A stretch of 33,910 nucleotides of DNA, from NCBI RefSeq assembly GCF_003334355.1, contig NZ_QOWP01000036.1; one strand, given 5' to 3'. Positions 7,687-10,678 of this stretch are shown here, one piece after another. Each line of letters starts with the position of its first letter. Position 1 is the first letter of the stretch. The notes beneath the pieces were generated by a model that ran no database searches, was not told where the DNA came from, and saw nothing but the letters and a program-made list of their open reading frames with translations. This DNA comes from Escherichia coli (GTDB lineage: Bacteria > Pseudomonadota > Gammaproteobacteria > Enterobacterales > Enterobacteriaceae). Both the position numbers and the translations under genes were made by a program.

Positions 7687-9063
7687 ATGAAAATTATCAT
7701 TCTGGGTGCCGGCCAGGTTGGCGGCACACTGGCGGAAAACCTGGTTGGCGAGAACAACGATATTACTGTTGTCGATACCAACGGTGAGCGTCTGCGGACC
7801 TTACAGGATAAATTTGACCTGCGGGTCGTGCAGGGGCATGGCTCTCATCCACGCGTATTGCGGGAGGCAGGTGCCGACGACGCCGATATGCTGGTTGCTG
7901 TAACCAGTTCAGATGAAACCAATATGGTTGCCTGCCAGGTAGCCTACTCACTTTTCAACACCCCTAATCGCATCGCTCGTATCCGCTCACCAGACTACGT
8001 GCGCGATGCCGATAAGCTATTTCATTCAGATGCTGTGCCGATTGATCATCTGATCGCACCAGAGCAGTTGGTTATCGATAATATTTACCGACTGATTGAG
8101 TATCCCGGCGCATTGCAGGTGGTGAACTTCGCTGAGGGTAAAGTCAGCCTGGCTGTGGTTAAAGCCTATTATGGCGGCCCGCTGATTGGTAATGCACTTT
8201 CGACCATGCGCGAACATATGCCACATATCGATACTCGTGTGGCAGCAATTTTCCGCCACGATCGCCCCATTCGTCCGCAAGGTTCGACCATTGTTGAAGC
8301 TGGTGATGAAGTGTTCTTTATTGCCGCTTCACAGCATATCCGCGCGGTGATGAGTGAATTACAGCGACTGGAAAAACCGTATAAGCGGATCATGCTGGTT
8401 GGTGGCGGTAATATCGGTGCAGGGCTGGCGCGTCGTCTGGAAAAAGATTACAGCGTTAAACTCATCGAACGTAATCAGCAGCGCGCTGCCGAACTGGCGG
8501 AAAAGTTACAGAATACGATCGTCTTTTTTGGTGATGCGTCGGATCAAGAACTACTGGCCGAAGAACATATCGATCAAGTTGATCTGTTTATTGCCGTCAC
8601 CAACGATGACGAGGCCAATATCATGTCCGCCATGCTTGCCAAACGTATGGGTGCGAAAAAGGTGATGGTATTGATCCAGCGTCGCGCTTATGTGGATCTG
8701 GTTCAGGGGAGCGTTATCGATATTGCGATTTCACCACAACAAGCAACTATTTCTGCGTTGCTTAGCCATGTGCGAAAAGCAGATATTGTTGGTGTTTCCT
8801 CATTGCGCCGCGGCGTAGCAGAAGCTATTGAAGCCGTTGCTCACGGTGATGAAAGCACCTCACGCGTTGTCGGCAGAGTCATTGACGAAATCAAGCTACC
8901 GCCAGGAACGATTATTGGAGCGGTGGTACGTGGAAACGACGTGATGATTGCCAATGACAATCTGCGCATTGAGCAAGGCGATCACGTAATTATGTTCCTC
9001 ACAGATAAAAAGTTTATTACCGACGTCGAAAGACTCTTCCAGCCAAGCCCTTTCTTCTTGTAA
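7687..9063 (+). CDS. trkA: Potassium uptake protein TrkA (tandem NAD-binding domains)
   Basis: 458 aa [22 protein letters not shown]... with a second Rossmann motif [13 protein letters not shown]. Confidence 0.97.
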
Positions 9064-9065
9064 TT

Positions 9066-9100
9066 AATAAGGCGTCTAATGACGCCTTATTATTTCCCTT
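9066..9100 (+). terminator. Rho-independent terminator downstream of trkA
   Basis: Perfect 11 bp stem AATAAGGCGTC / GACGCCTTATT with TAAT loop (9066..9091), followed by a T-rich tract. Confidence 0.7.
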
Positions 9101-9192
9101 TGATTATCAAGGATTAATTAAATTCATTCCTGGCAGGAAAATGGCTTAACATTTGTTAGACTTATGGTTGTCGGCTTCATAGGGAGAATAAC

Positions 9193-9603
9193 ATGAGCAT
9201 TATTAAAGAATTTCGCGAATTTGCGATGCGCGGGAACGTGGTGGATTTGGCGGTGGGTGTCATTATCGGTGCGGCATTCGGGAAGATTGTCTCTTCACTG
9301 GTTGCCGATATCATCATGCCTCCTCTGGGCTTATTAATTGGCGGGATCGATTTTAAACAGTTTGCTGTCACGCTACGCGATGCGCAGGGGGATATCCCTG
9401 CTGTTGTGATGCATTACGGTGTCTTCATTCAAAACGTCTTTGATTTTCTGATTGTGGCCTTTGCCATCTTTATGGCGATTAAGCTAATCAACAAACTGAA
9501 TCGGAAAAAAGAAGAACCAGCAGCCGCACCTGCACCAACTAAAGAAGAAGTATTACTGACAGAAATTCGTGATTTGCTGAAAGAGCAGAATAACCGCTCT
9601 TAA
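9193..9603 (+). CDS. mscL: Large-conductance mechanosensitive channel
   Basis: 136 aa [36 protein letters not shown]..., matching remembered MscL. Confidence 0.97.
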
Positions 9604-9818
9604 CAAGCGCCTGAAAGCAGAAGACCAGTGGTAAAAAAGTGATTTACTTTCTTGCCACTGGCCTCCCAGTTCCCCCGATTGCCATGTTTTCCTTTTCGCA
9701 TGTAACTGCCTTTCCCCTTCTTATTTTTCTCTACGCGCTGTCGGAATAAGGGATCATGTAGTAATGCTTCTATCGCATTATCCTTTATCTGCCCTTTAGT
9801 ATGCTGATATCGACTCAT
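9600..9818 (-). CDS. arfA: Alternative ribosome-rescue factor A (YhdL)
   Basis: 72 aa [47 protein letters not shown]..., convergent with and 4 nt overlapping mscL. Confidence 0.9.
9624..9662 (-). promoter_or_regulatory. Hairpin inside the arfA 3' coding region (RNase III processing site that makes the non-stop arfA mRNA)
   Basis: Inverted repeat CCAGTGG (9625..9631) / CCACTGG (9655..9661) with partly self-complementary intervening sequence, located in the last third of arfA. Confidence 0.6.
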
Positions 9819-9873
9819 AAAAACTCCAGTTGGTTATTTAACGGCGCGAGTGTAATCCTGCCAGTGCAAAAAA

Positions 9874-10299
9874 TCAACAACCACTCTTAACGCCACTCGC
9901 CCCTTGTTCAAGAGCTTCAAGAATCGAACAATAAACACTGCTATGAGCAGTCCCACAACAGGCATCGTTAAGGCGTTGCAAGGAACGCTGCATACTCTGC
10001 AACTCGGCTATCCGTGCTTCGACTTCCTGCAATCTTTCCTGCACAATGCCTTTTGACTCCTGACAGGTATGGTGTTCAGGATCGATGCGGATCGACAGCA
10101 ACTCGCGGATCGACTCCAGACTGAAACCTAGTTGTCTGGCATGGCGGATAAATTTCAATCGCTGGAGATCGCTTTCGGTATATAGGCGAAACCCACCTTC
10201 AGTACGCACTTCATGCTCCATCATCTGCTGTTTTTCGTAATAACGAATCGTGTCGGGTGTTACTTCCGCCATTTTTGCCAGCTCACCAATGCGATACAT
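9874..10299 (-). CDS. zntR: Zn(II)-responsive MerR-family transcriptional regulator
   Basis: ORF 9874..10347 trimmed to MYRIGELAKMAEVTPDTIRYYEKQ... (141 aa); MerR HTH and C-terminal Cys/His metal-binding residues. Confidence 0.93.
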   Translation of the reverse strand: MYRIGELAKMAEVTPDTIRYYEKQQMMEHEVRTEGGFRLYTESDLQRLKFIRHARQLGFSLESIRELLSIRIDPEHHTCQESKGIVQERLQEVEARIAELQSMQRSLQRLNDACCGTAHSSVYCSILEALEQGASGVKSGC

Positions 10300-10309
10300 A
10301 CATACTCCA

Positions 10310-10678
10310 CTAGTTATCGTTGATTTTGTCCAACAACTTGTCAGCATAATCGCCGCGTAAAAAATCGGTACTCAATCCAGCTTGTCGCAGCTTCAATTCC
10401 AGTAATGACAATCGACGGCTAACCTCTTGATATTGCGGATCATCGTGACGGATACCTTTGAGAATATCCAGAAGCTGAATTGCTTCTCTCCGTTGCTCAA
10501 GTTCTGGCGGTAAGCAACCGGCATTCTTCAGCAAGCGATACCCCGCACGTAATTCCGGTGGCACGTGAGAATCATCATCCAGTATCAATGGTTCGCCGCT
10601 ACCTGCCAGGTTATCAAACTCACCTTTCGCTTGCGCTTCTGCTATATGGCGCTCTGCCCACTGGTCAAGTAACCACAT
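10310..10678 (-). CDS. yhdN: YhdN (DUF1992) protein
   Basis: 122 aa ORF MWLLDQWAERHIAEAQAKGEFDNLAGSGEPL... Confidence 0.85.
   Translation of the reverse strand: MWLLDQWAERHIAEAQAKGEFDNLAGSGEPLILDDDSHVPPELRAGYRLLKNAGCLPPELEQRREAIQLLDILKGIRHDDPQYQEVSRRLSLLELKLRQAGLSTDFLRGDYADKLLDKINDN

Follow-up and report, generated by a model that had tools for sequence, protein, structure and literature searches.

The 3' stem-loop of Escherichia coli arfA, its cleavage by RNase III and the coupling of arfA regulation to tmRNA were reportedly described by Garza-Sanchez 2011, Chadani 2011 and Schaub 2012. arfA is a textbook example of a gene that purposely makes a stop-less mRNA, and the level of its product reports spare trans-translation capacity. 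The inverted repeat in the gene forms a mismatch-containing stem-loop, which is a substrate for RNase III (PMC3989581; also PMC8012679, PMC3989591). According to the review literature, arfA mRNA rises if the stem is disrupted by synonymous mutations or if rnc is mutated, the C-termini of ArfA coincide with the cleavage site, and the hydrophobic tail makes full-length ArfA unstable (PMC3989581, PMC8012679, PMC3989591). Truncated ArfA receives an SsrA tag and is degraded as long as trans-translation is not saturated (PMC3989581, PMC8012679, PMC3989591). At a length of 53-55 residues, truncated ArfA is fully active (PMC3989591). [quoted passage not shown] A transcriptome-wide map of in vivo RNase III cleavage found the arfA cleavage pair again, with 2-nt overhangs (PMC6212723). 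Up-regulation of arfA has also been noted in a pnp mutant, reported without a 3'-end position (PMC9122600). In-ORF intrinsic terminators occur in the arfA genes of other Proteobacteria, as reported by Schaub 2012 and reviewed in PMC8012679 and PMC3989591.

The stem-loop has also been connected to the adjacent mscL gene. Morra et al. 2023 place its limits at arfA nt 146-206 and describe how RNase III frees a 54-nt arfA fragment that is then cut to pieces of ~24 and ~30 nt (PMC10070815). The fragment serves as an antisense RNA that lowers mscL mRNA to roughly half (Morra et al. 2023, PMC10070815). Through this antisense fragment, the hairpin ties ribosome rescue to MscL expression. In vitro, RNase III also cuts the mscL 3' UTR, from which an RNA of 49 nt has been reported (PMC10070815).

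The DNA analysed here, hereafter the window, is a stretch of 33,910 nucleotides from the E. coli chromosome. It is colinear with MG1655 positions 3,428,832-3,462,741. The two sequences differ at 72 of the 33,910 positions and are identical over 8169-10169 of the window. The arfA CDS is at 9600-9818 on the minus strand and comprises 72 codons, beginning with ATG, plus a TAA stop; the assignment draws on the ORF list, PDB, Pfam and RefSeq. The encoded protein is 100% identical (72/72 residues) to chain 3 of PDB entry 5H5U (5h5u_3, 'Alternative ribosome-rescue factor A'). Pfam family ArfA (PF03889) matches residues 4-45, the N-terminal functional region, with E = 1.1e-25. RefSeq names the gene at this position arfA in E. 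coli genomes, and no NCBIfam model matched ArfA. Thus, the 72-residue ArfA ORF that the first-pass annotation had called intact is indeed so. In K-12, the gene is also known as yhdL (b4550).

The mscL CDS is at 9193-9603 on the plus strand (NCBIfam MscL equivalog, 1.6e-85; RefSeq) and converges on arfA. The stop codons of the two genes overlap in the palindrome TTAA at 9600-9603, giving a 4-nt CDS overlap. Morra et al. (PMC10070815, Fig. 1B text) put E. coli in the 'proximal' class (0 < x <= 110 nt), a minor discrepancy in class with the 4-nt mscL/arfA CDS overlap according to RefSeq. All 5,426 complete E. coli genomes match a 751-nt query around the hairpin (9150-9900). In E. coli ET5 (NZ_CP101014.1), this match is split in two by an IS1A insertion at the locus. 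In S. flexneri, arfA is reported to have been lost via an insertion element 3' of trkA (PMC3581467).

A perfect 7-nt inverted repeat, CCAGTGG/CCACTGG, is found in the 3' coding region of arfA at 9625-9631 and 9655-9661, exactly where it had been placed in advance (9625..9661). The pattern occurs once in the window compared with 0.00 occurrences expected from 100 shuffles, which rules out a chance repeat. It is the core of a longer repeat with arms of 19 nt (9622-9640 and 9646-9664) that are 84% complementary. In the arfA-sense (minus strand) RNA, the full stem-loop extends from 9613 to 9673, or nt 146-206 of the 219 nt of arfA. From its base, it has an outer helix of 4 bp and a lower stem of 14 bp, then a C.A mismatch, and above this an A/U-rich upper stem of 8 bp closed by a 5-nt loop. 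The core hairpin occupies 9618-9668 on the same strand. Here, 9655-9668 pairs with 9618-9631 in the lower stem, 9646-9653 pairs with 9633-9640 in the upper stem, and the loop is at 9641-9645. The mismatch seen in the fold opposes 9654 (arfA nt 165) and 9632 (nt 187). The stem-loop is therefore inside the ORF, 3' of the codons for the active domain and 5' of the stop codon, as is characteristic of the arfA self-truncating element.

Folding of the minus strand RNA over 9600-9700, suggested earlier as a check, revealed a stable stem. The predicted energy is -37 kcal/mol (z = -4.21) and none of 200 shuffled sequences was equally stable. The 61-nt hairpin alone (9613-9673) has an energy of -29.9 kcal/mol in the arfA sense, with z = -5.75. 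In the mscL sense, the same segment folds with -21.5 kcal/mol (z = -4.41) and the pairs of the plus strand hairpin span 9622-9664. The mscL-sense hairpin is shorter and weaker because five G.U pairs of the arfA-sense stem become A.C mismatches on the plus strand.

In UUCUGCUUUCAG, the base of the arfA-sense stem together with its tail, 6 of 12 nt are U (family mean 6.8). The arfA-sense tail itself, CUUUCAGG, departs from the consensus U-tract. A consensus scan called no terminator at the hairpin on either strand. A search of 9600-9700 against Rfam returned no match at E <= 1 or at gathering score, and Rfam contains no model for the hairpin. Over 9000-10500, Rfam gave only weak matches, attributable to chance, in the neighbourhood of the trkA terminator. 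A REP or other dispersed repeat can be ruled out; the 61-nt hairpin has a median of 1 and a maximum of 2 copies per E. coli genome and is found once in the window.

Several other structures were noted in the window. At 9595-9609 on the minus strand, a small 5-bp hairpin, CGCTTGTTAAGAGCG, spans the shared TTAA stops; GTTATTCTGC comes after it, and the scan classed the hairpin as terminator-like. The complementarity of this small hairpin is present in Escherichia and absent from most other genera in the alignment used below. A strong canonical terminator-like hairpin, with 12 pairs and the T-run tail TTTCCCTTTG, lies directly after the trkA stop codon (9065-9092, plus strand) and separates trkA from mscL. 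The sole Rfam match at gathering level in the whole window is Alpha_RBS (RF00140, 102.7 bits), at 13608-13719 on the minus strand upstream of rpsM. The S10 (rpsJ) and spc (rplN) ribosomal-protein clusters in the window had no upstream Rfam match of gathering score.

We consider it almost certain that the stem-loop at 9613-9673, in the last third of the arfA CDS, acts on the arfA mRNA as a self-truncating non-stop switch. RNase III would cut the transcript within the stem after ~nt 165 (codon 55) and again after ~nt 189. Alternatively, transcription would end just beyond the stem. By either route, the arfA message would be left without a stop codon. Ribosomes would stall at the 3' end of such an mRNA, and tmRNA-SmpB would normally tag the 53-55-residue ArfA for proteolysis. 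If trans-translation were saturated or absent, untagged truncated ArfA would build up and, with RF2, rescue stalled ribosomes. Any full-length, 72-residue ArfA would be unstable because of the hydrophobic tail. The freed 54-nt yrdG, complementary to the mscL 3' UTR, would reduce mscL mRNA stability. On the plus strand, the same palindrome would fold into a hairpin of lower stability, marking the 3' end of mscL.

The published features can be placed on the window. Codons 1-55 of arfA (9654-9818, minus strand) encode the active truncated ArfA; nt 1-165 translate to 55 residues ending ...NWEASG. The ncRNA yrdG (b4846), an 'arfA-derived small regulatory RNA', is a RefSeq feature of MG1655 that maps to 9600-9653 on the minus strand. 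It corresponds to the 54-nt 3' fragment and is antisense to the mscL 3' UTR. As reported, the upstream RNase III cut is between 9654 and 9653 (RefSeq yrdG 5' end; PMC10070815). Cutting after nt 165 and nt 189, as quoted, leaves a 3-nt overhang if the mismatch is counted, versus the textbook 2 nt; the cleavage coordinates and 3' ends are second-hand, from reviews, Morra 2023 and the RefSeq feature. For cleavage, termination, tagging, truncated-protein activity and antisense action, we likewise rely on published work with the identical sequence. The first-pass annotation had proposed that the RNase III hairpin gives rise to a non-stop arfA mRNA and to active truncated ArfA only when tmRNA rescue fails. 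The proposal fits the published experiments on this sequence, and the comparative tests described below agree with it independently. Nothing in the sequence evidence contradicts the self-truncation explanation.

The comparative set was obtained from a scan of species-representative genomes with alignment of 16 closer sequences. This gave 80 loci, all from Enterobacteriaceae, with ArfA proteins of 77-99% identity. Alignment A3 covers arfA nt 136-225 in 79 distinct sequences and is gap-free across the hairpin. When the pairs of the E. coli structure were imposed on A3, 91.6% of cells were paired, compared with 43-64% if the 3' partners were slid by 1-3 columns; the sequences are related, and such cell counts overstate the number of independent events. 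None of 500 shuffles of A3 (79 sequences) attained the observed pairing or covariation score. In the 13 inner pairs of the lower stem, 1026 of 1027 cells were paired across the 79 sequences. Compensation is seen in the upper stem, where pair 38-44 is C-G in 45 sequences, U-A in 29 and U-G in 5. Similarly, upper-stem pair 33-49 varies between G.U, A-U and G-C. The C.A mismatch is near-invariant, with C in 78/79 sequences and A in 76/79. For E. coli as a whole, the comparison of hairpin conservation with an N-terminal control is qualitative only, since the 28-nt word of megablast loses diverged control matches.

Residues 51-68, encoded by this region, are well conserved in Enterobacteriaceae, as they would be if selection acted on the C-terminal peptide of ArfA and the palindrome were a by-product. 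Because the stem is coding, we examined silent sites. Silent variation at third positions, measured as entropy among synonymous codons, dropped from 1.05 bits in codons 2-50 to 0.22 bits in codons 51-67 (p = 2e-5, Mann-Whitney). Within the stem, hardly any change is seen at the four-fold sites of codons 53, 55, 63, 64, 65 and 66, whereas those upstream vary freely. The low silent-site entropy in the stem hence indicates selection on the nucleotides, beyond that on the peptide alone. On this silent-site constraint we rejected the peptide-level reading, which we regard as exceedingly improbable. Covariation and constraint at silent sites show that structure, rather than peptide, is what homologues conserve.

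The behaviour of the ArfA tail also argues against selection on the peptide. Homologous ORFs are near-identical up to residue ~68, beyond which they diverge, with total lengths of 69-110 residues. A U6 run (9632-9637, minus strand; T6 in arfA-sense DNA and AAAAAA on the plus strand) lies in the 3' arm of the upper stem and is a natural frameshift site. E. coli variant P0057 (92 residues, 136 contigs) results from a 1-nt deletion in the run and P0070 (88 residues) from a 1-nt insertion; hand translation agrees in both cases. Such frameshifts are common, as P0057 illustrates, and alter every residue past position 62. The P0057 (-1) and P0070 (+1) frames both extend into the antisense of mscL. 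Furthermore, truncated ArfA suffices: ArfA cut at 46-60 residues has been used in PDB structures and activity assays, and forms of 53-55 residues retain full activity (PMC3989591). Variable tails and U6 frameshifts would be expected if translation seldom goes beyond codon ~55. The tail, encoded by the stem and the nucleotides beyond it, is dispensable and hydrophobic, with a mean Kyte-Doolittle value of +1.52 for residues 61-72 versus -1.45 for residues 1-55.

A different possibility is that the palindrome is primarily an mscL 3'-end element, either a terminator or an exonuclease block, that arfA merely overlaps. The arrangement of the genes would allow for this, as mscL is convergent on arfA in 80/80 Enterobacteriaceae loci and the spacing between mscL and the hairpin is constant. 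In addition, the plus strand hairpin is stable in its own right, at the energy given above for the window and with a family mean of -29.8 kcal/mol. The in vitro cleavage of the mscL 3' UTR by RNase III, and the 49-nt RNA (PMC10070815), also favour a primary role for mscL. Conversely, it is chiefly the arfA strand that bears the wobble pairs, with 241 cells of A3 that are G.U in the arfA sense versus 13 that are A.C there and would be G.U in the mscL sense. Considering the hairpin alone, the arfA-sense form is the more stable in only 49/79 sequences. The strand bias owes something to shared ancestry and to a handful of invariant positions, and is therefore supportive but short of proof.

Distant homologues, reached by four separate homologue look-ups, provided further evidence. 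The four arfA genes (L082-L085) encode ArfA proteins of 37-59% identity, and 4/4 carry an in-ORF hairpin at the same place. At L082, mscL is still convergent and the core of the hairpin, CCAAUGG/CCAUUGG, is doubly compensated. At L083, L084 and L085 (37-47% identity), there is no mscL nearby, and unrelated hairpins occur at nt ~140-205 with z = -3.3 to -6.3. Those of L084 and L085, at nt ~137-180, resemble terminators in that a U-run comes after a G+C-rich stem. Since arfA genes without mscL keep a hairpin, the in-ORF hairpin belongs to arfA rather than to the mscL neighbourhood. The same genes bear on the peptide, as distant homologues retain a hairpin and not the C-terminal residues. We also encountered a 383-bp contig, labelled Arthrobacter sp. 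18067 (NZ_CACSJJ010000125.1; L027), that carries an enterobacterial arfA-mscL junction, with an ArfA 87% identical to that of E. coli and a Raoultella-like hairpin. The junction is probably contamination of the Arthrobacter assembly.

In the window, the mscL 3' UTR (+1 to +64) corresponds to 9604-9667 on the plus strand and holds the plus strand hairpin (PMC10070815, citing SEnd-seq of Ju et al. 2019). The published end, near 9667, is ~3 nt beyond the plus strand stem. Hence, the hairpin marks the mscL 3' end, an observation in keeping with a primary role as an mscL 3'-end element. The +64 end and the 49-nt RNA reportedly go back to Ju et al. 2019 and Kawano et al. 2005. It had been stated that the hairpin sits 20 nt after the mscL stop and may help to terminate mscL. 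The hairpin is indeed 3' of the stop codon, but the distance needs correction; the 7-nt repeat starts 21 nt after the last base of the stop, and the full stem 14-18 nt after it. The suggestion about termination holds in part: the hairpin marks the 3' end of mscL, but not in the manner of a canonical Rho-independent terminator. The plus strand tail after the stem, CCUCCCAGUUCCCC, has 3 T in 12 nt (family mean 3.2), so that neither the window nor the family has a U-tract here, and no plus strand terminator was predicted between 9604 and 10500. The lack of a U-tract, and of any terminator in the scan, speaks against the canonical intrinsic mechanism for mscL; both likewise weigh against the palindrome being primarily an mscL element. 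With the wobble bias and the mscL-free homologues also taken into account, we think it unlikely that serving mscL is the primary role. A secondary role for the hairpin, in shaping the mscL 3' end, is likely.

Equally possible is that the mscL 3' end arises by processing, or that a longer transcript is trimmed back as far as the hairpin. One specific version is that Rho-dependent or collision-induced termination of mscL takes place further downstream, followed by 3' exonuclease trimming to the stem; the hairpin would then be a stabiliser and not a terminator. The missing U-tract after the plus strand stem and the empty terminator scan over 9604-10500 are both consistent with this. So too is the listing of mscL-arfA among overlapping-transcript 'excludons' (ExcludonFinder). 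Downstream of the hairpin, the plus strand (9662-9760) has much C (31%) and little G (16%), as may be expected of a rut-like region. However, the C-richness is also the plain complement of the Lys/Gly/Arg-rich codons of ArfA, and the Rho and trimming steps are inferred from composition. We hold this version to be possible rather than probable. It concerns only how the mscL end is formed. For the arfA transcript, the self-truncating switch remains our favoured explanation; the sequence, the fold and its conservation, selection at the nucleotide level, the strand bias and independence from mscL were all observed here and form its basis.

Position 9624, in the lower stem of the hairpin, is a silent A/G dimorphism in E. 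coli. The window and K-12 have A, so that the pair is G.U in arfA-sense RNA and is lost to an A.C mismatch in mscL-sense RNA. G, which restores a G-C pair, is present in 76/79 Enterobacteriaceae sequences and in 3/3 other E. coli genomes sampled, all three of which were drawn from the 95-99% identity band. Over 9613-9673, 2,582 complete E. coli genomes are identical to the window and 2,840 are in that band. The predicted consequences differ between strands. The arfA-sense hairpin has -29.9 kcal/mol with A versus -32.6 kcal/mol with G, so that A is weaker by 2.7. The mscL-sense hairpin has -21.5 kcal/mol with A versus -28.1 kcal/mol with G, a difference of about 6.6. The K-12 allele therefore costs the mscL-sense stem much more than the arfA-sense stem, which is a further point against a primary mscL function. 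The A allele leaves the arfA RNase III substrate nearly whole and weakens the mscL-sense stem, and a tuned imbalance between the strands, as opposed to a silent and neutral change, is conceivable but doubtful. In that case, E. coli lineages with A at 9624 could differ from the others in how stable the 3' end of mscL mRNA is, how far transcription reads through into arfA antisense, and how strongly arfA and mscL affect each other.

Compared with the known systems, the hairpin in the window shows no difference from the E. coli K-12 arfA 3' stem-loop and is that very element. Sequence, limits (nt 146-206), position past codon ~50, mismatched stem and hydrophobic tail are all the same. This is also true of the yrdG/mscL-arfA crosstalk (Morra et al. 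2023, PMC10070815): the sequence is identical, and 9600-9653 on the minus strand is complementary to the mscL 3' UTR at 9604-9667. A single study (PMC10070815) is the source for the physiological weight of this antisense effect (~two-fold for mscL mRNA). The arfA hairpin and the antisense link to mscL are both already published and annotated, and no new biology follows. The present work adds the family-wide silent-site constraint, a measure of strand bias, and the A/G dimorphism at 9624 with its unequal effect on the two strands. For genome scanning, the locus has value as a positive control, in which a validated regulatory RNA structure within a CDS was recognised from sequence alone.

The in-ORF terminators in arfA of other Proteobacteria share with this element a hairpin 5' of the stop codon that leads to a non-stop mRNA, and L084 and L085 appear to be of that kind. 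The E. coli stem differs in being long, in having an A/U-rich upper part and a mismatch, and in lacking a clean U-tract. These features fit a double-stranded substrate for RNase III better than a classic terminator. The locus also resembles the bidirectional terminators between convergent genes (Ju et al. 2019), in that RNA 3' ends are reported near a single palindrome on both strands. It differs from them in that only the arfA-sense 3' flank is U-rich (6/12, family mean 6.8, versus 3/12 and 3.2 on the mscL side), and in that the arfA/mscL element is inside coding sequence.
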